A DNA stretch of 64,000 bases from Candidatus Bathyarchaeia archaeon (GTDB lineage: Archaea; Thermoproteota; Bathyarchaeia; 40CM-2-53-6), in contig DASYWW010000062.1 of assembly GCA_035935655.1 (NCBI GenBank), positions 203,859 to 267,858 of the forward strand, read 5' to 3'. Shown here piece by piece: positions 23,256 through 45,370 of this stretch. The notes under the pieces are model-generated. The model searched no databases. It was not told where the DNA came from and saw only the letters and a program-made list of their open reading frames with translations. A program made the translations under genes and the position numbers. Position 1 is the stretch's first letter; each line of letters begins with the position of its first letter.

Positions 23256-25034
23256 TCAGAGAATTGGCGGTTCTTTGTAGTCGCCAAAAATGTTCCTTCC
23301 CACGTCCATTATCTCTCCTAGCGTAGCATAAGCTCTGACAGCCTTGACCATCGGATACATACAGTTAGCCTTCTCATCCTTGAACGTCTTCCGTAGCTCA
23401 TCCAACGCTTGCTCAACCTTGTTGTTGTCCCGCGTTTCCCGGACCATGTGTATCCTTGCTACTTGGCGCCGTTGCGCCTCTTCATTGATCTTCAAAGTGT
23501 CGATCGGCTTCTTCTCTTCGATCTGGAACTTGTTCACGCCAACAACGACCCTGTCTCCTCTCTCAAGCTCCTGCTGGTAGCGATAGGAGTTCTCAGCGAT
23601 CTCTCGTTGAATGAAGCCGGTCTTTATCGCGTCAATCAATCCTCCTGCTCGCTCTATCTTGTCAAAATACTGGAAGGCAAGTTCCTCCATTTCATCAGTC
23701 AACCATTCCAGATAATACGACCCAGCCAACGGATCGATTGTATCAGCGACACCGGTCTCTTCTGCGATGATCTGCTGGGTCCTCAAGGCAACCGTCGCCG
23801 CCGCCTCCGACGGCAACGCCCACGCTTCATCGTAAGAGTTCGTGTGAAGGGACTGCGTCCCACCGAGCACAGTCGCCAGTGCTTCGATGGTTGTTCGAAC
23901 AATATTATTGAGAGGCTGCTGCCAGGTTAGTGACGCGCCAGAGTTCTGCGCGTGCGTCCTCAACAATAGTGATCTAGGATCATTGACCTTGTATTTGTCC
24001 TTCAACACGCGTGCCCAGATTCGGCGGGCAGCGCGAAACTTTGCGACCTCTTCGAAAAAGTCCATCCCACAGTTGAAGAAGAAGGAAAGGCGGGGCGCGA
24101 AATCCTCGACTTTGAGCCCGGCCTCTATTCCGAGGTCAACATATGCAAAGCCGTCGGCGAGCGTGAAAGCAAGTTCCTGGACTGCGCTGGACCCAGCTTC
24201 CCGAATGTGATAACCGCTAATACTGATGTAGTTCCACTGCGGCATCTCCTTTGTACAATATACCATCATATCTCGAATGATTCGTAGATGCGCTTCAGGT
24301 GGGAAGGCCCATTCTTTCTGAGCGATGTATTCCTTCAGGATATCCGCCTGAACTGTGCCTCGAAGTTCTTTTGGCTTGAGACCTTGTCTCTCAGCAACAC
24401 CAACATACATCGCGGTCAAAACCGAAGCTGGGGCATTGATCGTCATACTAGTGCTAACTTTCTCCAGCGGTATCCCTTCGAGAATGATCTCCATGTCCTT
24501 CAGCGAGCCAACCGACACACCGCAGCGTCCGACCTCTCCCTCGGCCCTGGGGCTATCCGGATCATACCCGTAAAGGGTCGGCATGTCGAATGCTATGCTC
24601 AGACCAGTCTCTCCGTGCTCTAGCAGGTAGTGTAGCCGCTTGTTCGTGTCTTCAGGGGTTCCGAAGCCGGAGAACATGCGCATCGTCCACGGTCTTCCCC
24701 TGTACATGGTTGGGTATACGCCACGGACATAGGGATACTCGCCTGGAAGCCCGACTTCCTTGGACTGGTCAAAGTGCGAAATATCCTCGGGAGTGTAGAC
24801 TCTTTTCACCGGAACATTTGACAAGTTTCGAAATTCCTGTTTCTGCTCAGGGCTGTCGCGGGTCCATGGTTTGAGCGTCTTGTTCTCCCATCGGACTCTC
24901 TCTTGCTTGATCTTTGCAAGTTGCTTCTTATCGAAGGTAGTCGGTGGAGCTTTCCGTTCCTGCTTGACCTCGTCTAGAACTTTCTTCCAGTAACTCTTTG
25001 CCAAAACACTATCACGAAACAATGGAAGATGCAT
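23256..25034 (-). CDS. Coenzyme-B12-dependent acyl-CoA mutase catalytic (large) subunit paralog with an isobutyryl-CoA-mutase-like substrate signature; no fused B12-binding domain
   Basis: Mutase catalytic-domain homology throughout (WTMRMFSGFG, HGETGLSIAFDMPT, GTVQADILKEYIAQ). The likely start is the ATG at 25034; the ORF-track start at 25124 is a GTG extension that abuts meaB. Confidence 0.8.
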   Translation of the reverse strand: MHLPLFRDSVLAKSYWKKVLDEVKQERKAPPTTFDKKQLAKIKQERVRWENKTLKPWTRDSPEQKQEFRNLSNVPVKRVYTPEDISHFDQSKEVGLPGEYPYVRGVYPTMYRGRPWTMRMFSGFGTPEDTNKRLHYLLEHGETGLSIAFDMPTLYGYDPDSPRAEGEVGRCGVSVGSLKDMEIILEGIPLEKVSTSMTINAPASVLTAMYVGVAERQGLKPKELRGTVQADILKEYIAQKEWAFPPEAHLRIIRDMMVYCTKEMPQWNYISISGYHIREAGSSAVQELAFTLADGFAYVDLGIEAGLKVEDFAPRLSFFFNCGMDFFEEVAKFRAARRIWARVLKDKYKVNDPRSLLLRTHAQNSGASLTWQQPLNNIVRTTIEALATVLGGTQSLHTNSYDEAWALPSEAAATVALRTQQIIAEETGVADTIDPLAGSYYLEWLTDEMEELAFQYFDKIERAGGLIDAIKTGFIQREIAENSYRYQQELERGDRVVVGVNKFQIEEKKPIDTLKINEEAQRRQVARIHMVRETRDNNKVEQALDELRKTFKDEKANCMYPMVKAVRAYATLGEIMDVGRNIFGDYKEPPIL

Positions 25035-25124
25035 GGAGGTTCCTATTTTTCCATTATCCTGACGCTGTTCATCGCCGAATCTTGAAATACGCTCTAGAGG
25101 CGAGAACGGAACCGAGAATCTCAC

Positions 25125-26075
25125 TTGGCACGAGAGCTATCCTCTCAAATCCTCAAAGGAGACCATAGAGCCGTTGCCAAGGCCATCTCAATTGTCGAGG
25201 CGGGTGGAGACCCGAGTCGTAAGCTCATTCAAGAATTGTACCCACACACAGGCAAAGCGTTCACCATTGGTGTTACCGGTCCGACCGGGACTGGCAAGAG
25301 CACTCTCGTAGACAAGATAATCGAAGAGTATCGCAAAAAAGAAAGTAGCGTTGGAGTTCTAGCAATCGACCCGTCCAGTGCATTCACTGGTGGCGCGTTG
25401 CTCGGAGACCGCGTACGCATGATGGATCACAGCCTAGAGAAGAAAGTCTACATTCGTAGCATGGCGTCACGAGGTGATTTGGGCGGTCTCGCTCGAGCCG
25501 CGAGAAACACGATCCGAGTGTTGGACGCAGCCGGGATGGATATTGTCATCGTGGAGACCGTTGGAGCGGGTCAAACCGAGGTACAGATCGCATCTGCAGT
25601 CGACGCCACGATTGTCGTACTGATGCCTCAACTAGGGGATGAGATCCAGGCGTTCAAAGCCGGCTTCGCCGAAATTGGTGACTTGTTCGTCATCAACAAG
25701 TCAGACTTAGTCAATCCAGCTAAGACAATCTACAACATCGCAAGCGGTCTACAAGAGAGAGACGGATGGAGGCCGCCGGTTCTAAAGACTGTGGCAGTCA
25801 AGGGAACAGGTGTCCCAGCGGTTGTTGATGCTATCGAAAAATTCCGACAGTATCTGGAGACTGGAAGCCTCGGAGAGAAACGGTTGAGCAAGAGAATCCA
25901 GTCCGAACTGATAGATGCCGCCTTTTCAGATTTCTATCATCAAACTGTCAAGCGTCTCGGAGATCAGAGAGAACTCGACTCTCTTGTCTCAAGAGTTGTG
26001 AAACGTGAACTGGATCCAGAGACCGCCGCGTCCAAGCTTGTCCAAATCATCTCCAAGATAGGAGAAAGGACTTGA
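25125..26075 (+). CDS. meaB: MeaB/ArgK-type G-protein chaperone of methylmalonyl-CoA mutase
   Basis: P-loop GVTGPTGTGKSTL, the characteristic MeaB N-terminal helix (HRAVAKAISIVEAGGD), and a Walker B/G motif (DIVIVETVGAGQ). Its end overlaps the mcm start (ATGA). Confidence 0.9.
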   Translation: MARELSSQILKGDHRAVAKAISIVEAGGDPSRKLIQELYPHTGKAFTIGVTGPTGTGKSTLVDKIIEEYRKKESSVGVLAIDPSSAFTGGALLGDRVRMMDHSLEKKVYIRSMASRGDLGGLARAARNTIRVLDAAGMDIVIVETVGAGQTEVQIASAVDATIVVLMPQLGDEIQAFKAGFAEIGDLFVINKSDLVNPAKTIYNIASGLQERDGWRPPVLKTVAVKGTGVPAVVDAIEKFRQYLETGSLGEKRLSKRIQSELIDAAFSDFYHQTVKRLGDQRELDSLVSRVVKRELDPETAASKLVQIISKIGERT

Positions 26076-27652
26076 CCGACCCCGTAACGACGGACTCTGG
26101 AATCCCTGTCAAGAAAGTCTACGAGAACAAGGATGTTCCACCGAGCTGGACAAGGTCGTCGGGGAAACCGGGCCAATACCCATACACGCGTGGCATCTAT
26201 GATGGAATGTATCGGGATCGGCTGTGGACCATGCGTCAATACACGGGTTTCGGGTCTGCGAAAGAAACCAATCGCCGGTTCAAGTACTTGATTTCTCATG
26301 GCGAGACCGGGCTAAGCACAGCATTCGATCTACCAACGCAACTTGGTCTCGACTCAGATCATCCGAGAGCCGCTGGAGAAGTTGGAAGAGTTGGAGTCGC
26401 AATCAGCAGCATCAATGACATGAGGCGTCTCTTCGAGGGCATCGACCTTGGAAAGGTCAGTACGAGCATGACAATCAACGCGACTGCACCGATTCTGCTT
26501 TCTCTATATGTTGCAGCTGGAATGGAAAGGGGCTTCCCTCAACGCATGTTGAGGGGGACGACACAGAATGATGTTCTGAAGGAGTATATCGCGAGGAACA
26601 CGTACATCTATCCTCCTGAAGCATCGCTGAAACTCTCAGTTGATCTCATAGAATACTGCGCCCACAAAATGCCTCGCTGGCATCCTATCAGTATCAGCGG
26701 TTATCACATTCGGGAGTCTGGCGCAAACGCGGTTCAGGAGCTAGGATTCTGTCTTGCGAACGCAATAGAATACGTGAAAGCCGCTCTTGACAGAGGGCTC
26801 AAGGTCGATCAGTTCGCTCCCCAACTCTCTTTTTTCTTCGCCTGCAGGAACGATTTCCTCGAGGAGATCGCGAAATTCAGAGCCGCACGCAGAATCTGGG
26901 CCCGCATAATGAAGAACCGCTTCAAAGCCCGAAATCCCGAATCATGCAAATTGCGGTTCCACACTCAGACCAGCGGTGAGACCCTGACCGCACAGCAACC
27001 TGACAACAACATCGCGCGGGTCGCAATCCAGGCCCTTGCAGGCGTCCTTGGTGGAACACAGTCTCTCCATACAAATTCAAGAGACGAAGCACTTTCTCTA
27101 CCCACCGAGGAATCTGTGCAAATCGCGCTACGAACCCAGCAGATCATTGCTCACGAATCAGGAGTGACAAAGACAGCTGATCCGTTAGCCGGAAGCTACT
27201 ATCTGGAATCCTTGACAAGAAATCTTGAGGCCAACGCGGTTCGTCTCTTAGAGAAAATCGAAGAACTGGGCGGCGCTAGAAAAGCCATAGAGTCTGGATT
27301 TGTGCATCGGGAGATACAGGACAGCGCTTACCGCTTCCAGAAATCGGTTGACGAAGGCCGAACGATCATTGTTGGAGTCAACAAGTTTACGGAGGGAAGC
27401 AGCGAACCGAAGATCCAGCGCATCGATCCCAAAGTGGAGAGGGCTCAGGTCAGTCAGCTGAAGAAGATGAAGGCATCGAGAAACACAAAGCAGGTTAAGA
27501 ATGCTCTTGGGCGTCTCTCCCGGTCCGCGATACATCAACAAAACCTTGTCGATGATGTCTTGGGTGCTGTCCGATCCAACTGTACTGTAGGCGAAATCAG
27601 TGATGTTCTAAGGGAAGCCTTTGGAGAATACCGCGTAAGAATCGACATGTGA
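26072..27652 (+). CDS. mcmA: Methylmalonyl-CoA mutase, catalytic (N-terminal/large) subunit
   Basis: Catalytic-domain motifs with the MCM-type specificity residues: Tyr in WTMRQYTGFG and Arg in KEYIARNTYIYPP. No B12-binding (DxHxxG) domain on this polypeptide. Confidence 0.9.
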   Translation: MTDPVTTDSGIPVKKVYENKDVPPSWTRSSGKPGQYPYTRGIYDGMYRDRLWTMRQYTGFGSAKETNRRFKYLISHGETGLSTAFDLPTQLGLDSDHPRAAGEVGRVGVAISSINDMRRLFEGIDLGKVSTSMTINATAPILLSLYVAAGMERGFPQRMLRGTTQNDVLKEYIARNTYIYPPEASLKLSVDLIEYCAHKMPRWHPISISGYHIRESGANAVQELGFCLANAIEYVKAALDRGLKVDQFAPQLSFFFACRNDFLEEIAKFRAARRIWARIMKNRFKARNPESCKLRFHTQTSGETLTAQQPDNNIARVAIQALAGVLGGTQSLHTNSRDEALSLPTEESVQIALRTQQIIAHESGVTKTADPLAGSYYLESLTRNLEANAVRLLEKIEELGGARKAIESGFVHREIQDSAYRFQKSVDEGRTIIVGVNKFTEGSSEPKIQRIDPKVERAQVSQLKKMKASRNTKQVKNALGRLSRSAIHQQNLVDDVLGAVRSNCTVGEISDVLREAFGEYRVRIDM

Positions 27653-32235: not shown

Positions 32236-32655
32236 CTACGCGGACATGATGAGCCATGTTCCAGTACACTTTGCTATTACTTCCTGTCTCGCGTTTGTCA
32301 GAACCGCTTCAGTAAATGCGATCCGTCGGCCTCTCTTGGCAATCGTCCCCTCAGCAACTAATCGTCCCTTAATGTGAGGTCGCATGAAACTCATCTTCAA
32401 CTCAATGGTAGTCATGTCCTCGTCAGGCTTTAGCGTCGATGCCACCGCGATCCCCATCGCCGCATCCGCGATATCCACCATCACACCGCCGTGCATAGTC
32501 CCGGATAAATTGTGAAGGTGCTCGTCCACGTCCATTTCGAGAACCGCTTTGTTTTCTTCTATGTTGTGCACCCTGATCCCAAGCGTTCCAATCGCCGGGC
32601 TAGGCGGCTTGCCCGCCTTCCAGGCTGAGTAAACCTTGTCCCGGACTCCCTTCAT
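32236..32655 (-). CDS. PaaI/hotdog-fold acyl-CoA thioesterase
   Basis: The HGG-containing motif LSGTMHGGVMVDIADAAMGIA typical of PaaI/YbgC-type thioesterases. Confidence 0.75.
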   Translation of the reverse strand: MKGVRDKVYSAWKAGKPPSPAIGTLGIRVHNIEENKAVLEMDVDEHLHNLSGTMHGGVMVDIADAAMGIAVASTLKPDEDMTTIELKMSFMRPHIKGRLVAEGTIAKRGRRIAFTEAVLTNARQEVIAKCTGTWLIMSA

Positions 32656-37501: not shown

Positions 37502-38665
37502 CTACGAGGGATGGAGAACGTTCTTCGAAATGATTAACCTCATAATCTCAGAGGTACCCTCCCCTACTGTCATCAATCTCGCGTCTCGCCAATGACGGTG
37601 AACATCAAACTCGTCGGCGTATCCATAGCCCCCGTAGATCTGAATTGCCTCATCGCACACCTTGAGCGCATTCTCGGTGGCGAGTAACTTGCCCTGCGCG
37701 GCCTCTGACTCGAACGGTTTTCCCTGACTTTTCAGGTGCGCCGCACGGTAAACCATCATCCGTGAGGCGTTGATCATCGTCAACATGTCCGCAAGTTTCG
37801 CTTGAGTCATCTCGAACTCGGATAACGTCTTTCCGAACGCCGTCCTCTCTTTGCTGTACTTTACTGCTTTTTCGAACGCCGCCTGAGCAATTCCGGTCGA
37901 TAGTGCTCCGATTGTCACTCGTCCACCCCACAGCATTCTCTTAGCGTACTCGAATCCTTCTCCTTCTGTTCCCACCAGATTCTCTCTCGGGACCTTTGCG
38001 TTTTCGAACACTACCTCCGACGTGACTGATCCTCTTACCCCGAGTTTCTCAATGTCTTTGCTCGACTTCGCCTTCTTTGAGTCTACCAGAAATGCAGAGG
38101 GACCTTTAGCGGTCTTGGCGAAAAGAAAATACAGGTCACAGTAGCCGCCGTTCGTAGTGAACATCTTCGTGCCGTTAACTATCCATTCGTTGCCCTCCAT
38201 CCGAGCCTGTGTCTGCATGTTCCGCGCGTCCGATCCTGCACCAGGTTCGGTCAGAGAAAACGCGGCGAAAGTTTTACCGTTGATCATTCCAGGAAGGAAC
38301 TGCTTCTTCTGCTCTGGATTACTGAACTGACGTACACCTTCACAACATGTTCCATGAATCGCTAAGGAAAGAGCCGTGCTAGCGCAGGCCTTGCCGACCA
38401 TCTCCATGGCCGCAACATATACTGGCCATGGAAGCTCGAGGCCCCCGTATTCTTTAGGAAAACCCATGCTTGTGAAGCCCTGCTCAAACATCTTTGTGAT
38501 GTTCTCGCGCGGAAACTGAGCGTTCACGTCGATCTCTCGCGCGGTAGGCTCGATCTCTTTCTCGATAAAGTCCCCAAGGGAGTCTAGGAGAAGAAGATGG
38601 TCCTCAGCGCTGGATCCGTAAATCATCTGGATGAGTTCTTTCTGCGTGTCACCGAAGAAACCCAC
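37502..38665 (-). CDS. Acyl-CoA dehydrogenase
   Basis: Acyl-CoA-dehydrogenase family similarity across all three domains; C-terminal catalytic-base region (TVGEGTSEIMRLIIS). Confidence 0.9.
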   Translation of the reverse strand: MGFFGDTQKELIQMIYGSSAEDHLLLLDSLGDFIEKEIEPTAREIDVNAQFPRENITKMFEQGFTSMGFPKEYGGLELPWPVYVAAMEMVGKACASTALSLAIHGTCCEGVRQFSNPEQKKQFLPGMINGKTFAAFSLTEPGAGSDARNMQTQARMEGNEWIVNGTKMFTTNGGYCDLYFLFAKTAKGPSAFLVDSKKAKSSKDIEKLGVRGSVTSEVVFENAKVPRENLVGTEGEGFEYAKRMLWGGRVTIGALSTGIAQAAFEKAVKYSKERTAFGKTLSEFEMTQAKLADMLTMINASRMMVYRAAHLKSQGKPFESEAAQGKLLATENALKVCDEAIQIYGGYGYADEFDVHRHWRDARLMTVGEGTSEIMRLIISKNVLHPS

Positions 38666-38811
38666 ACGATTGACCTCTAGGAAACTCCTTTTTTGGAAGC
38701 TCCGGTTTATACCTTAGCCAAGAACCGGATCTTGATTGAGAGCGACATACGAGAGTTCCATACTCCTAAAATCGGAACATCGTTAGTCTAACCAATAATG
38801 GAGTTCGAGAC

Positions 38812-40446
38812 GTGAAAACCCCTACTCTCAGGGTTCTCTTAGTCATCCTCGGCATCATGCTGGGCCTGCAATCATCTATTGTTCTGGGCCACAACTCTTT
38901 GATAATAACCTCCAACTCGGCCCTATTACCTCAACCAATCAGGCAAGGACCCCTTCAAGCCACCTATGCTCTTGGAGGATACTATTGGTTCCAGATCGGA
39001 GCCATTGGTGACAGCAACAGCTACAACGTTGACGGCGCAAGCATTACGATTAGAACAGTCTATGACCAAGTTCGGAATGATGCTCATTCTTACTGGGTAG
39101 GCACTCTACTAGTGACCGGGGGGTTCGTCCAAGTAGGATATCTCAACGGGCTGAGCACCACCGGCCAACCATATTGTTGCGCGTGGTTTTTCGAAACCTT
39201 CTACACACCAAACTGTGACTGTCCCCCCATAATCGGCCCCGAAGGGTCAGCCGGGCCTATTGGGTCCTGGCACACATACTCAATGGTCCATACCAGCAAC
39301 GGTGTATGGTCTTTCTACATGGATGGCAATCTTCTGGGAAATTCACCTCCCCCTTCGGACAAGAACTACCTTGGAGCCGGAGCAACCAATTCGGGCAACC
39401 AGGCCCCAGCAGGAATTGCTGAAGTAGCTCAAGCAACAGACAACAAGGACATAATCGGCCCCACTGAGTTCAAAGATCTAGAAATACGTCAGACAGGTCT
39501 CTGGCACCAGATGACAAATGGAGTAAGCCACTGTTGTTATGGCTACAGCAGTCAGACCGGCTTGCCTAACCTGTATGGAGTTGCGGAGGTTGAAGGCCTC
39601 AGAGATGATTTCCTCGCTGGAAGCAACATTCGTCAACCATCCTCTGCCACGACCCTCTGGCCGACGTCTGTTCCTTCTTCAATCAAGACTTCTTTCAACT
39701 TCATCGATCGCAGCGGAGGCCCTTTTACCCCCGATTGGATTTCCCTGCAAGACCTAGGCAATGGTAATGTCATCTACTACACCGGCTACGCGGCCCAAGA
39801 CATCCCTCCGTCTAGTAGCGGCACCTACAGGATCATCTTTGCATCATGGCATGGAGTCAATGTCGTGCGCAATTCTCTGGCATCTGACTCGGCGACAAGT
39901 CAGACAATTCAGGGAGATGTCTTCTCCATTCCCGTCCATGTGGTCGGTCGATTCTACTCTCTTCCGGTCAGCGGAGCAACCGTTCTCACCTTCCTCCCTG
40001 ACTCGACCAATGAGACTGTGAGGACGGACTCGGAAGGAAATGCAACTCTAGTGCAATTGCCTCCGGGAAACTATAGTCTGCGAGTAGCAGTCCCCTACGG
40101 GGTGCAGTCCCTCTTGAGGACGAGCGTGGCGGGACCCGCGAACATCTCTGTCGCTGTCTTCAGCATCGCAGAACTTCTCACTCTGATCATCCCACCGATC
40201 ACTGCTGCTGTAGCTGTTGTCTTCGTAGCCGTGAGAAGAGAACATGCTCGCCGGGTCGCCATGCCAACGATGCCGTTTACAACGCCATTTCCCACGACAA
40301 CCCTGACCGCCTACTGTGGAGCTTGTGGAAAGCTTCTCGGTCCAGCGGAACTATTCTGCATGACCTGTGGAACGCCTAGGGCTGGGTCTCCACAGCCATC
40401 TCCCGCTCAGCAATTGCCTCCATCATCTTCGGCCCCGTCCCCATGA
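38812..40446 (+). CDS. Secreted, membrane-anchored surface protein (signal peptide, large ectodomain, one TM) with a cytoplasmic C-terminal zinc ribbon and Pro/Ser-rich tail
   Basis: Signal peptide MKTPTLRVLLVILGIMLGLQSSIVLG; TM ...IIPPITAAVAVVFVAV followed by RREHARR; then YCGACGKLLGPAELFCMTCGTP. Confidence 0.6.
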   Translation: MKTPTLRVLLVILGIMLGLQSSIVLGHNSLIITSNSALLPQPIRQGPLQATYALGGYYWFQIGAIGDSNSYNVDGASITIRTVYDQVRNDAHSYWVGTLLVTGGFVQVGYLNGLSTTGQPYCCAWFFETFYTPNCDCPPIIGPEGSAGPIGSWHTYSMVHTSNGVWSFYMDGNLLGNSPPPSDKNYLGAGATNSGNQAPAGIAEVAQATDNKDIIGPTEFKDLEIRQTGLWHQMTNGVSHCCYGYSSQTGLPNLYGVAEVEGLRDDFLAGSNIRQPSSATTLWPTSVPSSIKTSFNFIDRSGGPFTPDWISLQDLGNGNVIYYTGYAAQDIPPSSSGTYRIIFASWHGVNVVRNSLASDSATSQTIQGDVFSIPVHVVGRFYSLPVSGATVLTFLPDSTNETVRTDSEGNATLVQLPPGNYSLRVAVPYGVQSLLRTSVAGPANISVAVFSIAELLTLIIPPITAAVAVVFVAVRREHARRVAMPTMPFTTPFPTTTLTAYCGACGKLLGPAELFCMTCGTPRAGSPQPSPAQQLPPSSSAPSP

Positions 40447-40515
40447 TCACAACGAGCATCTTCATCGCGGAAGTCTTATAGTAAACACGCTCGTGCGGTC
40501 GATTCCGATAGATTC

Positions 40516-41667
40516 TTGCCTCAACGAATCGGAATAGTAGGCGTCGGATATTCAGGCTTCGATTCGATGACTCCTGGCCTCTCAACCCGGGAGCTTATGT
40601 TCGAGGCTGCCACTCGCGCGTATGAGGATGTCGGAATAGACCCTCGGAAAGACGTTCAGAGCTTCGTCTGTTGCACCGAAGATTTCTGGGAAGGAATTAG
40701 CATAACTGACGAGTACATGCCCGACCAGTTAGGCGCAGTTCTGAGACCGCTCTGCACGATATCATCTGATGGAATTGTTGGGCTAGCAACGGCGTGTATG
40801 CATATTATGTCGGGCATAGCCGACGTTGCGGTTGTAGAGTCTCACAGCAAGATCTCAGACGTTCTGAATCCTAGCGAGATCTCGAGCTTTGCCCTGGACC
40901 CGATCTATGATCATCACGTCAACGCGGACCCGAGATTTGTGGCCGGGTTAGAAATGGTTCGCTATCTGAAAGACACGGCTACAAAAAGAGAATATTGTGC
41001 TCAGGTCGCCGTCAAGAACAAGAAAAACGCGCTCTTGAACCCTCGCGGAGTTCACGGAGCAAATCTGAACAAGGACGCGGTGCTCAACTCGAAGGTTGCA
41101 TCTTCACCCCTCACCGAGCTGGAATCGAGCAAAGCTATCGATGGAAGCATCGTTTTCGTACTAGCCTCAGCCCAAAAGGCCAAGAAGCTTGGCGACCATA
41201 CTGTCTGGATAAACGGGATCGGCTGGAGCTCTGACACGCCATGGATAGAGGATCGAGACATGGCAAAGGCCTCATACGCGGAACAATCGGCGGCCCGTGC
41301 GTACAAGATGGCGGGCGTACGGAACCCTCCAACGTACTTTGATCTCGCCGAGGTTGATGATACTTATTCCTACAAGGAGCTTCAGAGCCTCGAAGCCCTC
41401 AGACTAGCCGCAAAGGGCAAGGCCGGCAAGATGGCCGAGTCAGGCACTTTCGATAGAGATGGACGGTTGCCAGTGAACGCGTCTGGCGGGTCTCTTGGGG
41501 TTGGCCATCTATTAGAGGCGACTGGTCTTCATCGAGTTCTCGAGGCCGTTCTTCAACTCAGGGGACAAGCGGGACGGTTGCAGATTCCAAGAGTGAAGAA
41601 AGCTGTGGTCCAGAGCTGGAGAGGAATACCGACCGCGACCGGAGCCGTGGCGGTACTAGGGAACTAG
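40516..41667 (+). CDS. Thiolase-like protein (SCP-x/nonspecific lipid-transfer-protein-type acetyl-CoA C-acyltransferase family), partner of DUF35 proteins
   Basis: Thiolase fold similarity (GIVGVGYSGF...; ACMHI Cys region; C-terminal GGSLGVGHLLEATG). Confidence 0.8.
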   Translation: MPQRIGIVGVGYSGFDSMTPGLSTRELMFEAATRAYEDVGIDPRKDVQSFVCCTEDFWEGISITDEYMPDQLGAVLRPLCTISSDGIVGLATACMHIMSGIADVAVVESHSKISDVLNPSEISSFALDPIYDHHVNADPRFVAGLEMVRYLKDTATKREYCAQVAVKNKKNALLNPRGVHGANLNKDAVLNSKVASSPLTELESSKAIDGSIVFVLASAQKAKKLGDHTVWINGIGWSSDTPWIEDRDMAKASYAEQSAARAYKMAGVRNPPTYFDLAEVDDTYSYKELQSLEALRLAAKGKAGKMAESGTFDRDGRLPVNASGGSLGVGHLLEATGLHRVLEAVLQLRGQAGRLQIPRVKKAVVQSWRGIPTATGAVAVLGN

Positions 41668-41680
41668 GAGGAATCTGGAA

Positions 41681-42841
41681 ATGAAAAATCGTGTAGCTAT
41701 CGTTGGAGCAGGCATGACACTATTCAGACGCCGAATGCTCGAAAGCCCGAAAGAACTCTCTTTCGAAGCGACAAGAATGGCGCTCGACTCGGCGGGGCTT
41801 GAACTGAAAGACATCCAATCTGTGGTGTCCGGCTCGGCACCTGACGCGTTCGATGGCATACACATGAAAGGAGAATATCTTCTAGACGGGACGGGCGGAA
41901 TTGGCAAGCCCAACCAGCGAGTCTACGTCGGAGGTGGAACCGGAGTCTTCACACCGATCGGCGGATGGTGGAATGTTGCGTCGGGAATGTACGATACTTG
42001 TCTCTGCGTGGCCGAAGAGAAAATGTCGCCCCTGCATCCTCATCCTCAGTATGCGTTCTGGAGCATCTTCGATCAGATTCTGGAAAGGCCTCTCGGAACT
42101 ACATTGCTTTGGATTTTCTCTTTGGAGATGAGACGATACATGCACAAGTACGGAATCAAGGAGGAAGAGATCGCAAGTGTCGCGGTGAAGAACAAAGGAA
42201 ACGCCGTCGATCATCCCTGCGCACAACTGGGCGCCAAGATCACCGTTGAAGACGTCATGAACTCTGAGCCGATCTGTTGGCCCGTCAAACGACTGGACGT
42301 GAGTCCTCCTAGTGACGGTGCTGCCGCGGTGGTGTTAGCTTCCGAGAAAGTTGCGAAGAAACTAACAGACCAGCCTGTCTGGCTTGACGGAGTTGGCTGG
42401 ACTCTAGACACGACGCACTGGACGAACCGTGACTTGGCATATCCAGAGTACGTTGAGAAGGCCGCCTGGATGGCCTACAAGATGGCAGGGATCAAGAAGC
42501 CGAAGAAGGAGATCGATATCGCCGAAGTCTACGACCCATTCGACTACAAAGAACTCCATCACATGGAGGGACTCCAGCTCGCAGGCAAAGGAGAAGCTCC
42601 CAAGATGGCCGTTGACGGTGTAACCCAACGAGACGGTGATCTGCCGGTTTGTCCATCCGGAGGACTCTTAGGGGTTGGCAACCCCATCGCTGCGGCCGGA
42701 ATGATGAAGATCTGTGAGGTCTTTTGGCAGCTCCGCGGAGAAGCAGGGAAGCGACAGGTGAAGAAGGATGCTCGAACAGGCCTGGCCCAAGCCTGGGGCG
42801 ACCTAATGCAGGTTGGAACGGTCGCAGTAATGAGGTCCTAA
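41681..42841 (+). CDS. Second thiolase-like protein (SCP-x type)
   Basis: Paralogous to 40516..41667 (VAIVGAGMT..., C-terminal PSGGLLGVGNPIAAAG). SD-like GGAGG lies 9 nt upstream. Confidence 0.8.
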   Translation: MKNRVAIVGAGMTLFRRRMLESPKELSFEATRMALDSAGLELKDIQSVVSGSAPDAFDGIHMKGEYLLDGTGGIGKPNQRVYVGGGTGVFTPIGGWWNVASGMYDTCLCVAEEKMSPLHPHPQYAFWSIFDQILERPLGTTLLWIFSLEMRRYMHKYGIKEEEIASVAVKNKGNAVDHPCAQLGAKITVEDVMNSEPICWPVKRLDVSPPSDGAAAVVLASEKVAKKLTDQPVWLDGVGWTLDTTHWTNRDLAYPEYVEKAAWMAYKMAGIKKPKKEIDIAEVYDPFDYKELHHMEGLQLAGKGEAPKMAVDGVTQRDGDLPVCPSGGLLGVGNPIAAAGMMKICEVFWQLRGEAGKRQVKKDARTGLAQAWGDLMQVGTVAVMRS

Positions 42842-42856
42842 AGGAAACATAAGAAA

Positions 42857-43372
42857 TTGTCCAAGAAAATCACAAGCTACCCAGGCCACGAAATTACACC
42901 CGAGGATGTCAAAGAAGGAAAATACCTCGACGTCGTCTACAAGTTCGAGCCCAAATACAGTTGGGCCGCAGGAGTGGCAATCAGCCGGTTCTTGGCCGAG
43001 CTGAAAGAAGGAAGAATAATCGCTAGGAAGTGTATGAATTGCAAACGGATTCTTGTACCACCGAGAATGTACTGCGAGCAATGTTTCCGGCCAACCGACG
43101 AATGGGTCCAGATCAAGGACACGGGAACCATCAACACCTATTCCATATCGCACGTAGGAACGGACGCTCGACGATTGAAAACACCAATACTAGTTGCTGT
43201 GGTTGATCTCGACGGCGCGACTCCTGGAATGGGAATACTGCACAACCTAGGAGAAGTTGAGCCCTCGAAAATCAACGTAGGCATGAAAGTCAAAGCCGTA
43301 TGGAAATCGTCCAGCGAACGACAAGGAGCGATTACAGACATCCGCTACTTCAAACCGATAGGAGACCAGTAA
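42857..43372 (+). CDS. DUF35 OB-fold/zinc-ribbon protein (thiolase/HMG-CoA-synthase-associated, BbsA/ChsH2-like)
   Basis: CxxC...CxxC rubredoxin-like zinc ribbon (CMNCKRILVPPRMYCEQC) followed by an OB-fold. Confidence 0.8.
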   Translation: MSKKITSYPGHEITPEDVKEGKYLDVVYKFEPKYSWAAGVAISRFLAELKEGRIIARKCMNCKRILVPPRMYCEQCFRPTDEWVQIKDTGTINTYSISHVGTDARRLKTPILVAVVDLDGATPGMGILHNLGEVEPSKINVGMKVKAVWKSSSERQGAITDIRYFKPIGDQ

Positions 43373-43375
43373 GAC

Positions 43376-44137
43376 ATGCCAATCTTAGAGAAACTCGTTC
43401 AACCCGGGCAAGCTCGCCACTGGACAGACAGCATACCTCTCGAATACCACTACACTGCGGGAGTTGCAGGAGAGGAATTTCGGCGTGAACTCAAGGAGAA
43501 CGGTCGCTTCCTTGTATCGAAGTGCTCCAAATGCAAGAGTACCTACATTCCGGCCAGAACGTACTGTCCTGGCTGTTTCATCGAGATGAAAGACCAGTTC
43601 CCAATCGACAAGCCAGGTTACGTGTACAGCTTTACCTCAGTCAACTCGGACAGATCGGCGGCTGACGCCAACCCGCCGATAACAGTGGGCCTTGTGAAGT
43701 TCGAGGGCCTCAAGGGGGGAATAGTCCACCTGCTTGACGTAGATCACCCTGATCGAGTGTCTATCGGGATGAAAGTAACGCCATCTCTCAAGAACCCGTC
43801 AGAGCGAACAGGCGCTATGACCGATATCCTCGCCTTCAAACCAGTCTCGACGGGGCTAAACGACAAGACAGCTGAAGTCGGGAAAACAGGAAGATGGGAG
43901 GTCACTGCGGGAGAGAATCAGGCTCGGTCTCTTCTCCATTCTATCGAAGAGTCGGGATACCCCATTGAGGAGGACGAGATGACAATATCCTCGCTAAGGA
44001 GTAAGATAGGAAAAGGAGAACTTCTCACGCGCGAAGAAGACAGGCTGCTACACAGACTTGGGGAGAAAGCGAGAGAATGGCGGAAAGCCGTAAAGAGCTC
44101 ATCTGATACGGAACCAGCTGACACCCTCTCAGGCTAA
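43376..44137 (+). CDS. Second DUF35 OB-fold/zinc-ribbon protein with an extra C-terminal extension of about 110 aa
   Basis: CSKCKSTYIPARTYCPGC plus OB-fold, then a charged helical tail not present in the first DUF35 protein. Confidence 0.75.
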   Translation: MPILEKLVQPGQARHWTDSIPLEYHYTAGVAGEEFRRELKENGRFLVSKCSKCKSTYIPARTYCPGCFIEMKDQFPIDKPGYVYSFTSVNSDRSAADANPPITVGLVKFEGLKGGIVHLLDVDHPDRVSIGMKVTPSLKNPSERTGAMTDILAFKPVSTGLNDKTAEVGKTGRWEVTAGENQARSLLHSIEESGYPIEEDEMTISSLRSKIGKGELLTREEDRLLHRLGEKAREWRKAVKSSSDTEPADTLSG

Positions 44138-44224: not shown

Positions 44225-45370
44225 TTAGAATCGATAATTCATCCAGTAGTCTTCCAGCTTCGTCTTCTCAACCTGCCACTTTCGACGGGGCGGGTGAAAC
44301 TCCAGTCTTGGAGGGTTCGAGAGAAATTCTCCCCGAAGCATCGCACTTTCTCCCCTATTCACTTCGAGAAAGCATGATCCAGTTCCGTCCCATATTTTTC
44401 GTTCTCCTTTCCCTGTGATCGACATTGCAATGTTATTCGCGACAACCTCAGCGTGGCCAAGCGCGAACGATCCCGACTTCGGCAGAAATGGAACATGTGC
44501 ATGAGGCGTTTCAATCGCAGTTACATCTCCGATAGCGTAGACCTTCTCAAGCCTAGTAGCCAATGTCTGCGGGCTCACAGGCACCCAGCCAGACGAATCG
44601 GTCAGTCCAGCCTCGACCACGGCACCAGGACACTTATGAGGCGGAACAACGATCAGCAGATCGTACGGGAGCTCTGTTTTTCCCTCGAAAACCACCTTGT
44701 CCTTGTCCACCTTGGAAAGCTTGACTTTCGGGTGAAATGTTATTCCCTTTGAGGCCAGAAGCCTCTCCACCTGTTTACCGATTACAGGACCCGCGGCAGG
44801 AGCTGGATGCGGCTCCGGACTGAAAAACTCCACAGCAACTTTCTTTTTCGCTCTTGCAAAGTTGTCCTGCAAAAGCAAAGCCAAGCCATATGGCGCGACA
44901 GGACACTTGATAGGCAATCGTGATATTCCGATCAGCAGCCTTCCCCTCTCAAGATTCTCTATCGCATCTCGCAGCTTCATTGCAGATTCGAAATCGTAAA
45001 ACTGGTAAGCGTACTTCTCTAAACCCGGAACATCGCCCGGCGAATAATCCACGCCCATGGATATCACAAGGTGATCGTACTGAAACTCTTGCGATTCCGT
45101 TCTGATCCTCTTCGAGGAAGTATCAATCGAACTAACCCGATCGTTCACCAACCGGACTCTCCGCTTTTTCGGAATCGAAAGAGCGCGTCGAACTTTTCCA
45201 GGCTCGCGTCGACCCATTGCCAGTAGTGAGAAGGAGGGGGGGAATTCGAAGATTTTTTTCTGTTCTACTATCGTAATCGATGCTGATGGAGCCTTCTCGG
45301 CCAAGATGCTTGATGTTGCGAGGCCTCCCATTCCGCAACCTAAGACGACGACTTTATCGTTGGTTGACAA
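44225..45370 (-). CDS. FAD-dependent pyridine-nucleotide-disulfide oxidoreductase, sulfide:quinone oxidoreductase (SQR)-like
   Basis: N-terminal FAD site VVVLGCGMGGLA. Cysteines near residues 157 (KCPVAPYG) and 346 (GSCFLE) lie where SQR redox cysteines are expected. Length 381 aa. Confidence 0.55.
   Translation of the reverse strand: MSTNDKVVVLGCGMGGLATSSILAEKAPSASITIVEQKKIFEFPPSFSLLAMGRREPGKVRRALSIPKKRRVRLVNDRVSSIDTSSKRIRTESQEFQYDHLVISMGVDYSPGDVPGLEKYAYQFYDFESAMKLRDAIENLERGRLLIGISRLPIKCPVAPYGLALLLQDNFARAKKKVAVEFFSPEPHPAPAAGPVIGKQVERLLASKGITFHPKVKLSKVDKDKVVFEGKTELPYDLLIVVPPHKCPGAVVEAGLTDSSGWVPVSPQTLATRLEKVYAIGDVTAIETPHAHVPFLPKSGSFALGHAEVVANNIAMSITGKGERKIWDGTGSCFLEVNRGESAMLRGEFLSNPPRLEFHPPRRKWQVEKTKLEDYWMNYRF

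Follow-up and report, generated by a model that had tools for sequence, protein, structure and literature searches.

Which reaction would be carried out by two thiolase-like proteins that are encoded together with two DUF35 proteins, with no gene for a 3-hydroxy-3-methylglutaryl-coenzyme A (HMG-CoA) synthase beside them? This question is raised by a four-gene locus on a 64,000-nucleotide stretch of DNA from a Candidatus Bathyarchaeia archaeon (GenBank assembly GCA_035935655.1, contig DASYWW010000062.1, positions 203,859 to 267,858 of the forward strand); this whole stretch is called the window in the following, and all positions refer to it. The proteins encoded in the window are 98-99% identical to those of meadow-soil metagenome-assembled genomes (MAGs), and its host is a soil Bathyarchaeia archaeon. 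The four genes, here named Thl1, Thl2, DUF35a, and DUF35b, would encode one heteromeric, non-thiolytic complex, probably a retro-aldol lyase of 3-hydroxyacyl-coenzyme A (CoA) thioesters with Thl2 as the catalytic subunit. This is a tentative, though quite plausible, proposal.

The four-gene operon

The elements of the locus are the following.

40466-40486, plus strand: element CGCGGAAGTCTTATAGTAAAC resembling a transcription factor B recognition element (BRE) and TATA box, a 21-mer ending 30 nt upstream of the TTG of Thl1
40516-41667, plus strand: Thl1 (alpha), 383 amino acids, TTG start, thiolase fold without the thiolase catalytic residues, probable partner subunit
41681-42841, plus strand: Thl2 (beta), 386 amino acids, thiolase fold, Cys-less, with the motifs VGGGTG, YDPF, and GNP, probable catalytic subunit
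42857-43372, plus strand: DUF35a (gamma), 171 amino acids, zinc-ribbon and OB-fold
43376-44137, plus strand: DUF35b (delta), full open reading frame (ORF), 253 amino acids
43376-43843, plus strand: core of DUF35b, residues 1-156, zinc-ribbon and OB-fold
43844-44137, plus strand: C-terminal extension of DUF35b, residues 157-253 plus stop codon, consisting of a linker and an orphan domain

The original prediction, made from the nucleotide sequence, had described four packed co-directional ORFs, and both their coordinates and the intergenic gaps of 13, 15, and 3 nt (Thl1/Thl2, Thl2/DUF35a, and DUF35a/DUF35b, respectively) were reproduced exactly. Its domain calls were borne out as well. Both large proteins contain Thiolase_N and Thiolase_C_1 (the latter at 3.6e-30 in Thl1), and both small ones contain zf-ChsH2 and OB_ChsH2_C above the gathering score. 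Internal genes are preceded by Shine-Dalgarno-like motifs, namely GGAGG 8-9 nt before the ATG of Thl2 and GGAG before DUF35b. When the upstream regions of 18 related Bathyarchaeia loci are aligned, CGCGGAAGTCTTATAGTAAAC is nearly invariant amid diverging flanks, and the TTG start codon of Thl1 is likewise kept. The 21-mer looks like an archaeal BRE/TATA-like putative promoter of the operon; its conservation before Thl1 suggests a four-gene transcription unit.

Homologues of Thl1 in the databases are often called 17 codons shorter, as proteins of 366 amino acids starting from internal Met18 (P0121, P0123-P0125, and others). This call, which removes positions 40516-40566, loses the conserved first β-strand RIGIVGVGYSGF. 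The longer form is more likely correct, because relatives share the TTG at 40516, which follows the TATA-like element by 30 nt.

Loss of the thiolase catalytic residues

Thl1 and Thl2 were aligned with five control thiolases, i.e., 7yvy, 6esq, and three canonical thiolases of ketothiolase (KT)/DUF35 pairs that adjoin the module in related loci. Orthologues were drawn from the 80 best species-level genome loci, which also served as the synteny set and yielded 74 Thl1 and 80 Thl2 sequences; near-invariance was scored in 63 Thl2 orthologues from archaea and bacteria. The three motif regions compare as follows.

Nucleophile loop: AAC(A/S)SG in the controls, Cys present; in Thl1, TIS and SDG on either side of a three-residue deletion; in Thl2, VGGGTG
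HDCF/HDAF motif: present in the controls; DDTY in Thl1; YDPF in Thl2
GHP/GHA motif: present in the controls; GHL in Thl1; GNP in Thl2

All five controls show the nucleophilic Cys in the same alignment in which it is missing from both Thl1 and Thl2, and the catalytic Cys/His/Cys triad, which the original prediction had wanted checked, is conserved in neither protein. In Thl2, the nucleophile position is occupied by Gly (G86) in 79 of the 80 orthologues, and Y284-D-P-F as well as G-N334-P are invariant or nearly so. The aligned position of Thl1 is S, P, G, T, or A across its 74 orthologues, and its GHP His position varies between H, N, and Y. Thl1 has a conserved set of its own, comprising T81, D85, D281-D282 (D282 invariant, D281 in 72 of 74), N321, G324-G325, and G330. 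Because the acyl-accepting Cys is lost from both large subunits, no acyl-enzyme would be formed, and neither thiolysis nor Claisen condensation would proceed by the normal route. The earlier designation of the two proteins as SCP-x-type thiolases thus holds for their fold, but not for their catalytic residues.

A canonical thiolase was rejected after this motif analysis with its positive controls; judged by their residues, Thl1 and Thl2 cannot be thiolases. Annotation pipelines would see in the homologues an ordinary acetyl-CoA C-acetyltransferase or 3-ketoacyl-CoA thiolase, and acetyl-CoA C-acetyltransferase is the automatic name given to many of them by the Joint Genome Institute (JGI). Such an activity would call for an alternative nucleophile. 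The intact thiolase fold and the setting in β-oxidation gene clusters would agree with it, and Cys80 of Thl1, three residues before the deleted loop, could be considered for this role. In 21 of the 74 orthologues, however, F, H, L, Y, or N takes the place of this Cys. The acid/base Cys is gone as well, the catalytic His is missing from Thl2 and not constant in Thl1, and genuine thiolases are encoded beside the module in the same clusters. Furthermore, work on CtSal and TcLtp2 has shown that thiolase-fold enzymes with Gly in place of the nucleophile cannot do thiolysis; CtSal, which is incapable of it, has the same Gly as Thl2 (PMC12329534). An ordinary thiolase is extremely unlikely on these grounds, and the acetyl-CoA acetyltransferase label is probably wrong for both proteins.

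The loss of the thiolase catalytic residues from both subunits could also be taken as a sign of a non-catalytic scaffold or pseudoenzyme that organizes or regulates other acyl-CoA enzymes, in the manner of the inactive PhlA and MucA or of a Sulfolobus DUF35 assembly. DUF35-mediated assemblies are known, e.g., that of Saci_1121/1120 with a reductase and a dehydratase (bioRxiv 10.1101/2024.07.05.601840), PhlABC and MucABC each contain an inactive thiolase-fold subunit (PMC12960953, PMC2954200), and the conservation of Thl1 is moderate, with just 28 near-invariant residues. Thl2, on the other hand, has 136 of its 386 residues at least 97% conserved in the 63 orthologues, and its replacement residues G86, Y284-D-P-F, and N334 are invariant from archaea to bacteria along with much of the surrounding pocket, which is the signature of a new active site. 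It also diverges more slowly than the canonical, active thiolase of the same genomes (71-80% versus 60-66% identity). From this conservation and slow divergence, Thl2 is to be regarded as neofunctionalized and not as a decaying pseudogene. Moreover, one subunit of PhlABC and MucABC keeps its Cys, while neither does in the present module. A scaffold function is, thus, distinctly unlikely.

Conservation, synteny, and gene fusion

About 70 of the 80 loci share the order Thl1-Thl2-DUF35a-DUF35b, and with such a recurrence the arrangement is far beyond chance. The lineages that carry the module are Bathyarchaeia, Nitrososphaerales, Conexivisphaerales, Geothermarchaeota, Baldr-, Thor-, and Hermodarchaeota, and other Asgard archaea; it is also present in MAGs labeled Anaerolineales, Desulfobacterales, Acidobacteriota, and Xenobia. 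The original prediction had contrasted the combination of two thiolase-like and two DUF35 genes with the pair of one each that is normal in archaea. The combination is not peculiar to the present genome; it is a deeply conserved module, which is catalogued without function as NCBIfam PRK06065/PRK06066. Cross-lineage identity to the window protein is 68-78% for Thl2, 42-56% for Thl1, 45-63% for DUF35a, and 33-42% for DUF35b. Exceptions to the common order are a Pelearchaeum locus (L032), in which Thl1 and Thl2 have no adjacent DUF35 genes, and locus L068, in which the region upstream of Thl2 is masked by a run of N and the DUF35a ORF encodes 260 amino acids.

One locus (L084, 2585-4780) encodes a 731-amino acid fusion of Thl2, DUF35a, and DUF35b (P0252), with a Thl1-like gene before and a gene for a class A penicillin-binding protein after it. 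The cluster of this fusion protein has 27 members at 90% identity or more, coming from several independent assemblies. The natural fusion is evidence of the Rosetta-stone kind for Thl2 and both DUF35 proteins acting together as a single unit, and the contig that carries it, with its class A penicillin-binding protein, secures the occurrence of the module in bacteria. A second, N-truncated representative with the same fusion is P0270.

Three loci that were deposited as bacterial, namely L011 (bacterium, Centralia), L015 (Dormiibacterota), and L054 (Anaerolineales), are probably misbinned archaeal contigs. The module proteins of the Dormiibacterota and Centralia contigs are 92-93% identical to those of Bathyarchaeia, and those of the Anaerolineales contig show the same percent identities to the window proteins as Thorarchaeota loci do. 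These contigs were left out of the evidence on bacterial distribution, for which L084 was used.

Family assignment and predicted fold

Thl2 is a member of NF004721/PRK06065, which it matches end to end with 685.2 bits against a cutoff of 455. The end-to-end match of Thl1 to NF004722/PRK06066 reaches 491.9 bits (cutoff 516; next family 258.8 bits), and Thl1 is most likely a divergent member of that family. Both families are titled only "thiolase domain-containing protein", and these names carry no function.

The view that the locus is not a mevalonate-type unit of thiolase, HMG-CoA synthase, and DUF35 protein, as stated in the original prediction, was upheld. With NF053570 (AcCoTHIOL_METTL, the mevalonate thiolase of Methanothermococcus), whose cutoff is 600 bits, Thl1 reaches 158.4 bits and Thl2 213.7 bits. 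The window has 59 ORFs of 100 amino acids or more, of which about 35 were scanned with Pfam, the others being judged by reading their sequences only; these scans revealed no HMG-CoA synthase, HMG-CoA lyase-type enzyme, or biotin carboxylase. The mevalonate reading was rejected on account of these scores and the lack of an HMG-CoA synthase among the scanned ORFs. Membership in BbsAB was likewise discarded, given the missing Cys and scores far below cutoff with the curated hidden Markov models (HMMs), i.e., 85.6 and 141.6 bits with the BbsB model NF053628 (cutoff 750) and 22.1 and 19.4 bits with the BbsA model NF053627 (cutoff 250). The NCBIfam models of lipid-transfer proteins also stay far below cutoff for Thl1 and Thl2.

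Among solved structures, archaeal thiolases come closest to both large proteins in sequence, with E-values of 1e-26 to 1e-50; Sal and Ltp2 are outside the top five in the search of the Protein Data Bank (PDB) with the window proteins. For Thl2, an AlphaFold2 model was obtained with a predicted local distance difference test (pLDDT) score of 88 and a predicted template modeling (TM) score of 0.91. An alignment of 39 sequences (76-95% identity) had given a pLDDT of 54, and adding the paralogous Thl1 family brought it to 88. Foldseek comparison of the model with the PDB gave TM values of 0.87-0.93 at 29-34% identity to archaeal thiolases, behind which Ltp2 ranks 28th and Sal 40th; this search did not usefully separate aldolase-like from thiolase-like relatives. 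The equivalence of YDPF and HDCF rests on the alignment with 6esq and on the published alignment of Sal, Ltp2, and SCP2 (PMC12329534). With archaeal thiolases nearest in both sequence and fold, Thl2 would be derived from thiolases of the archaeal type, outside the steroid aldolase families. Kinship with BbsAB or Ltp2, as implied by the original prediction, is consequently not upheld. As an analogy, the comparison stands for its retro-aldol, Ltp2-like option and fails for the thiolytic, BbsAB-like one, because the nucleophilic Cys kept by BbsB is gone in both large subunits.

Thl1 and Thl2 share 38% identity, and DUF35a and DUF35b share 40%. From these values within each pair, the module seems to have arisen when a thiolase/DUF35 pair was duplicated long ago and the copies then specialized. 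The Thl2 family stands isolated among 1.84 billion representatives of 50%-identity clusters: full-length relatives are found at 63%, 60% (the fusion), and 48% identity, and then none above 43%. A motif census of the 107 full-length cluster representatives nearest to Thl2 gave the following classes.

Canonical, with Cys, HD.F, and GH.: 23 of 107
Beta-type (Thl2-like), Cys-less, Tyr at the HDCF His, 20 of the 24 with x-N-P: 24 of 107
Alpha-type (Thl1-like), Cys-less, loop deletion with xDG: 39 of 107
Other Cys-less: 17 of 107
Cys present, other motifs changed: 1 of 107
N-terminally truncated: 3 of 107

The nucleophilic Cys is absent from 80 of these 107 representatives. The census suggests a large radiation of Cys-less alpha/beta thiolase-like proteins, most of it unstudied, of which the PRK06065/PRK06066 module would be the most conserved branch.

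The DUF35 subunits

DUF35a matches OB_ChsH2_C at 1.3e-14 (54.3 bits) and zf-ChsH2 at 2.8e-8 (33.8 bits); the values for DUF35b are 1.1e-8 (35.4 bits) and 2.5e-7 (30.8 bits), respectively, the Pfam gathering cutoffs being 27.1 bits for OB_ChsH2_C and 23.2 bits for zf-ChsH2. The ribbon cysteines are C59, C62, C73, and C76 in DUF35a and C50, C53, C64, and C67 in DUF35b, and the CxxC...CxxC pattern of both is mostly kept in orthologues. According to Pfam, both proteins are free-standing, without a MaoC domain. Matches of DUF35a in the PDB are SSO2064, ChsH2(DUF35), and a DUF35 protein of Methanothermococcus. The best match of DUF35b is 3irb, i.e., SSO2064 of Sulfolobus solfataricus (E-value 1.4e-19, about 40% identity). 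The similarity of SSO2064 to DUF35b is on par with that of cross-phylum orthologues, which suggests that Sulfolobus carries the same module, with the crystal structure of one subunit already at hand (PDB 3IRB).

The C-terminal extension of DUF35b had been estimated at about 110 amino acids and actually comprises 97 (residues 157-253). Its first 25 or so amino acids form a variable linker, and the other 70 or so a conserved, charged, helical-looking domain. As the last 70 or so residues are visibly better conserved in the alignment than the linker, they suggest a real coding domain. The tail is found only in the closest soil Bathyarchaeia (L001-L010, L020), the DUF35b proteins of other Bathyarchaeia stopping at about 156 amino acids. 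It has no match in Pfam or NCBIfam, and a search of 5.8 billion proteins returned 10 matches, all of them fragments resembling the same tail at 73-92% identity, with no relatives outside its own clade. The tail is a lineage-specific add-on and not a feature of the module.

Comparison with known thiolase-fold/DUF35 systems

Every solved relative is a thiolase-fold dimer with DUF35 at its flanks (PMC12329534; PDB matches). The nearest functional analogue is the aldolase branch, represented by CtSal-Shy(DUF35) (PDB 9MYR) and TcLtp2-ChsH2(DUF35) (PDB 6OK1). Like the module, these systems combine the thiolase fold with a DUF35 partner, which the aldolases require, and lack the nucleophilic Cys. CtSal has Gly at the nucleophile position, as does Thl2, the base Tyr302 in its YDCY motif, and Gln352 where Ltp2 has Tyr344 (PMC12329534). 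Tyr at the HDCF His position is common to Sal (YDCY), Ltp2 (YDHF), and Thl2 (YDPF), and the GHP His is kept in none of them. The motif-first Tyr, in contrast to HDCF of SCP2 thiolases, is the base for retro-aldol cleavage of the 3-hydroxyacyl-CoA, the departing acyl-CoA enolate is stabilized by the thiolase oxyanion hole, and a DUF35 domain flanks each Sal or Ltp2 subunit and shapes the substrate cleft (PMC12329534). Both enzymes act in a β-oxidation-like pathway at a point where the 3-hydroxyacyl-CoA cannot be oxidized (PMC12329534). Gly, Tyr, and the lost GHP His of Thl2, being as in Sal and Ltp2, favor a non-covalent enolate C-C lyase and, specifically, retro-aldol chemistry. Thl1 is unlike Ltp2 and Sal in that its DDTY lacks the motif-first Tyr. 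In the Sal and Ltp2 systems, a homodimer is accompanied by two copies of a single DUF35 domain that is fused to a MaoC hydratase, whereas the present module has two different thiolase-like subunits and two free-standing DUF35 proteins, is found in archaeal hosts, and has no steroid context. Neither in the window nor in the related loci were steroid-degradation genes found among annotated neighbors and in Pfam scans.

The archaeal thiolase/HMG-CoA synthase/DUF35 complexes include the nearest solved relatives, are of archaeal lineage themselves, and use DUF35 partners of a like kind. Thiolases of this mevalonate type keep the Cys, HDCF/HDAF, and GHP/GHA and pair with HMG-CoA synthase; Thl1 and Thl2, by contrast, are Cys-less. 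PhlABC and MucABC (PDB 5M3K, 9VBO) resemble the module in having two different subunits of the thiolase superfamily plus DUF35, with one subunit dead (PMC12960953, PMC2954200). They differ in that PhlC and MucB keep an acetylated catalytic Cys, PhlA and MucA are HMG-CoA synthase-like, there is one type of DUF35 protein, and the context is that of secondary metabolites; Thl1 and Thl2 are both SCP2-thiolase-like, and the module has no HMG-CoA synthase-like protein. Saci_1121/1120 of Sulfolobus acidocaldarius is, like the module, an archaeal thiolase/DUF35 operon, located in a fatty-acid gene cluster and forming a DUF35-mediated complex (bioRxiv 10.1101/2024.07.05.601840). It is, however, a 1+1 pair of α2β2 structure with measured reversible thiolase activity, while the present module is 2+2 and Cys-less. 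BbsAB (PDB 7PXP), whose substrate is an unusual acyl-CoA, is likewise built from a thiolase-fold subunit of the SCP2 type and a DUF35 subunit, but BbsB is a true thiolase, unlike Thl1 and Thl2. TbSLP of Trypanosoma brucei (PDB 5AB4-7), for which an aldolase function has been proposed, resembles SCP2 thiolases but lacks their nucleophilic Cys, and its counterpart of HDCF begins with Tyr (YDCF); it differs from the module as a eukaryotic homodimer without DUF35 partner that keeps the motif Cys, and its similarity to Thl2 is weak (E-value 6e-10).

No publication on a Cys-less 2+2 module of thiolase-like and DUF35 proteins was found in full-text literature searches. A paper on acetone in Desulfotomaculum deals with a single acetone-induced DUF35 protein and not with the 2+2 module, one on branched-chain amino acids in Calditenuaceae mentions neither thiolase nor DUF35 in its main text, and the study of archaeal fatty-acid synthase counts KT/DUF35 pairs per genome without separating Cys-less 2+2 modules (bioRxiv 10.1101/2024.07.05.601840). 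What would be new in comparison with known thiolase-fold/DUF35 complexes is that the module is heteromeric in both components, that both large subunits are Cys-less, and that it is very conserved and widespread in archaea.

Genomic neighborhood

Further genes of the window that bear on the question are listed here.

23256-25124, minus strand: methylmalonyl-CoA-mutase-family large subunit, paralogue of that at 26072-27652
25125-26075: MeaB GTPase, flanked by the two mutase genes
26072-27652, plus strand: methylmalonyl-CoA-mutase-family large subunit, paralogue of that at 23256-25124
32236-32655, minus strand: 4HBT/PaaI-type thioesterase (Pfam)
37502-38665, minus strand: acyl-CoA dehydrogenase (ACAD) with all three ACAD Pfam domains, here outside the operon
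38812-40446, plus strand: surface-protein gene, 544 amino acids, between the ACAD gene and the operon
44225-45370, minus strand: Pyr_redox_2 flavoprotein, convergent, downstream of DUF35b

The ACAD and the thioesterase of the original prediction are both real. The former is not adjacent to the operon, as the 544-amino acid gene intervenes; its best NCBIfam match is AcrC-like, at 366 bits against a cutoff of 640, and no equivalog is reached. The latter lies 8 kb off, and its link to the operon is weak, because genes for a permease, an MscS-like channel, and a TrkA-like subunit are located between them, besides a GNAT acetyltransferase look-alike (the last three were recognized by reading the sequences). 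The 544-amino acid protein has a signal peptide, a CarboxypepD_reg/prealbumin-like domain, a C-terminal transmembrane helix, a zinc-ribbon-like CxxC...CxxC, and a Pro/Ser-rich tail. Its gene takes the same position in 15 related Bathyarchaeia loci at only 43-81% identity, i.e., it is fast-evolving, and seems to be an insertion specific to this lineage, separating two genes that are divergent neighbors in others. The best NCBIfam match of the Pyr_redox_2 flavoprotein is type III sulfide:quinone reductase (203 bits, cutoff 525), and the position of this gene is kept in the closest relatives only. Rfam and tRNA scans of the window gave no matches.

Across the 80 loci, recurrent neighbors of the module are the following.

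ACAD: 33 of 80 loci (19 of 59 outside the close clade), often divergent and directly beside Thl1
AMP-forming short-chain acyl-CoA ligases: 21 of 80 loci
Genuine thiolases: 17 of 80 loci
Class IV (branched-chain) aminotransferase: 9 of 80 loci
Electron transfer flavoprotein (ETF) alpha/beta: 8 of 80 loci
Crotonase: 7 of 80 loci
B12-dependent acyl-CoA mutase with MeaB and adenosyltransferase: 6 of 80 loci

The β-oxidation-like setting that had been surmised is supported, with ACAD, ETF, true thiolases, 3-hydroxyacyl-CoA dehydrogenase, and acyl-CoA ligases near the module in many lineages. In two loci (L081, L083), the module is surrounded by a whole cluster of the β-oxidation type, with ACADs, ETF, an Fe-S/CCG oxidoreductase, thiolases, a ligase, and a stand-alone 3-hydroxyacyl-CoA dehydrogenase; within 10 kb on either side, no enoyl-CoA hydratase gene of crotonase or MaoC type was found. 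Among the annotated recurrent neighbor clusters of the 80 loci (single-copy neighbors were not scanned), there is no HMG-CoA synthase.

The missing hydratase gene of these two clusters could be taken in favor of enolate chemistry without acyl-enzyme other than aldol cleavage, that is, decarboxylation of CoA thioesters of the malonyl-, methylmalonyl-, or 3-oxoacyl-type (cf. KSQ/CLF and TbSLP), isomerization, or hydration. The Cys-less TbSLP does decarboxylate malonyl-CoA, albeit at a rate so low that a physiological role is doubted by its authors and by later workers, and CtSal shows no decarboxylation at all (PMC12329534). A mutase, a B12-binding subunit, MeaB, and adenosyltransferase directly follow the module in several Bathyarchaeia (L037, L038, L049, L051), and two mutase genes with MeaB are located 13 kb upstream in the window. 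Mutase adjacency is nevertheless confined to just 6 of the 80 loci. As a clue to the substrate (methylmalonyl-CoA or 2-hydroxyisobutyryl-CoA) the B12-mutase neighbors were rejected for this weak linkage, and they are retained solely with regard to decarboxylation. Methylmalonyl-CoA decarboxylation would also leave the coupling to acetoacetate-CoA ligase, described below, unexplained. As for hydration and isomerization, we know of no thiolase-fold hydratase or isomerase, which weighs against these two. Altogether, enolate chemistry of this other kind is rather unlikely.

The strongest clue to the substrate comes from acetoacetate-CoA ligase. Its gene is inserted between Thl2 and DUF35a in 12 Nitrososphaeria loci, mostly with gaps of a few nt (e.g., L025, 9163-11142), one extra ORF separating it from Thl2 in 2 of them; in a 13th Nitrososphaeria locus (L021), it is located about 1.2 kb downstream of Thl2. 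The Nitrososphaeria ligases are 57-92% identical to that of L025. In one Bathyarchaeia locus (L044, 10163-12349), the ligase gene directly follows DUF35b. The family call is TIGR01217, at 833-834 bits against a cutoff of 521. From these two independent operonic arrangements, the complex would either make acetoacetate (or another 3-oxoacid) or use acetoacetyl-CoA. The bulky substrate of the original prediction did not find a counterpart in the data; no pointer to it was seen, and the ligase suggests a small one.

The ligase could, however, be read in the opposite direction, with the complex performing a biosynthetic aldol condensation in which an acetyl-CoA enolate is added to a ketone or 3-oxoacid, e.g., to give a ligase-fed HMG-CoA-like product for isoprenoids or lipids. 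Aldolases are reversible in principle, the intra-operon ligase of Nitrososphaeria could supply the complex and not consume its product, and archaeal thiolase/DUF35 complexes are known to drive unfavorable condensations by channeling (bioRxiv 10.1101/2024.07.05.601840). Yet the neighbors, i.e., ACAD, ETF, branched-chain aminotransferase, and degradative thiolases, are catabolic, neither HMG-CoA reductase nor HMG-CoA synthase was found nearby, and the fit to the mevalonate thiolase model is poor. There would also be no obvious driving force without thioester hydrolysis or an acyl-enzyme. Biosynthesis is, thus, very unlikely.

Proposed function

In the scenario of a retro-aldol lyase, Thl1 and Thl2 would form a paralogous pair capped by the two paralogous DUF35 subunits, giving an α-β-γ-δ complex or a multiple of it that would be transcribed from its own promoter. 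This stoichiometry, the lyase chemistry, and above all the substrate are what we infer. The remodeled site of Thl2, with Gly for the nucleophile, Tyr284 of YDPF for the HDCF His, and Asn334 for the GHP His, would support enolate chemistry on a CoA thioester without covalent catalysis, most probably as Tyr-assisted retro-aldol cleavage of a 3-hydroxyacyl-CoA into acetyl-CoA and a carbonyl compound. Thl1 would be a structural or substrate-binding partner, whose invariant acidic residues at the former active-site loop might, speculatively, bind substrate or metal, and the DUF35 proteins would shape the clefts for CoA and substrate. The pathway would belong to the catabolism of short- or branched-chain acyl-CoA.

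Because of the repeated operonic coupling to acetoacetate-CoA ligase, the leading candidate substrate would be a tertiary 3-hydroxyacyl-CoA that releases acetoacetate or another 3-oxoacid, e.g., HMG-CoA, cleaved into acetoacetate and acetyl-CoA. This last C-C cleavage of leucine catabolism would be the neatest fit with the aminotransferase, ACAD, ETF, thiolase, and ligase neighbors. In its mechanism, it would equal the reaction of Ltp2, a retro-aldol cleavage of a tertiary 3-hydroxy thioester. The assignment is nonetheless rated low and must be called doubtful, because genes for the carboxylase and the hydratase do not cluster with the module and the window offers only the ACAD, 1.85 kb away. 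In its wider form, the module would be an unrecognized thiolase-fold lyase for tertiary 3-hydroxyacyl-CoA (HMG-CoA, 3-hydroxy-3-alkylglutaryl-CoA) and a non-orthologous replacement of the TIM-barrel HMG-CoA lyase in the catabolism of leucine and possibly of isoprenoid acids, which we consider an unlikely possibility.

Several observations weigh against the aldolase proposal. The resemblance to Sal and Ltp2 is only partial, because the second catalytic residue of these enzymes is absent in Thl2: Cys304 of Sal corresponds to Pro286, and Tyr344 of Ltp2 has no equivalent, Asn334 being found at the GHP His position. As Thl2 is nearer to archaeal thiolases than to Ltp2 and Sal, it would have acquired any aldolase function separately from them. 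The operon has no hydratase gene, in contrast to the systems of Ltp2 and Sal. The immediate neighbors in the window, i.e., the surface protein, transporters, and the sulfide:quinone reductase-like gene, are mostly unrelated. Acetoacetate-CoA ligase is linked in about 14 of 59 non-redundant loci and is absent from the window, and genes for methylcrotonyl-CoA carboxylase are not clustered with the module.

Significance

Thousands of archaeal and bacterial genes of these families are named acetyl-CoA C-acetyltransferase or are counted as KT/DUF35 pairs, so that reconstructions of β-oxidation, the mevalonate pathway, and archaeal fatty-acid metabolism overcount thiolases and miss a reaction. The characterized Cys-less thiolase-fold/DUF35 enzymes are only steroid side-chain aldolases of Actinobacteria and Proteobacteria; a heteromeric relative, far better conserved and far more widespread than these, in archaea that do not degrade steroids would make such chemistry a general one instead of a steroid speciality. 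The linkage to acetoacetate-CoA ligase provides a concrete and cheaply testable hypothesis, and the probable Sulfolobus orthologue (SSO2064, PDB 3IRB) would make both genetics and biochemistry feasible. If cleavage of tertiary 3-hydroxyacyl-CoA proved true, the module would be the founding characterizable member of a large radiation of Cys-less alpha/beta heteromers that extends across Bathyarchaeia, Nitrososphaeria, Asgard archaea, and several bacterial phyla. Since the module is found in acyl-CoA catabolic clusters of abundant uncultured archaea of soils and sediments, its reaction would tell what carbon these organisms eat.

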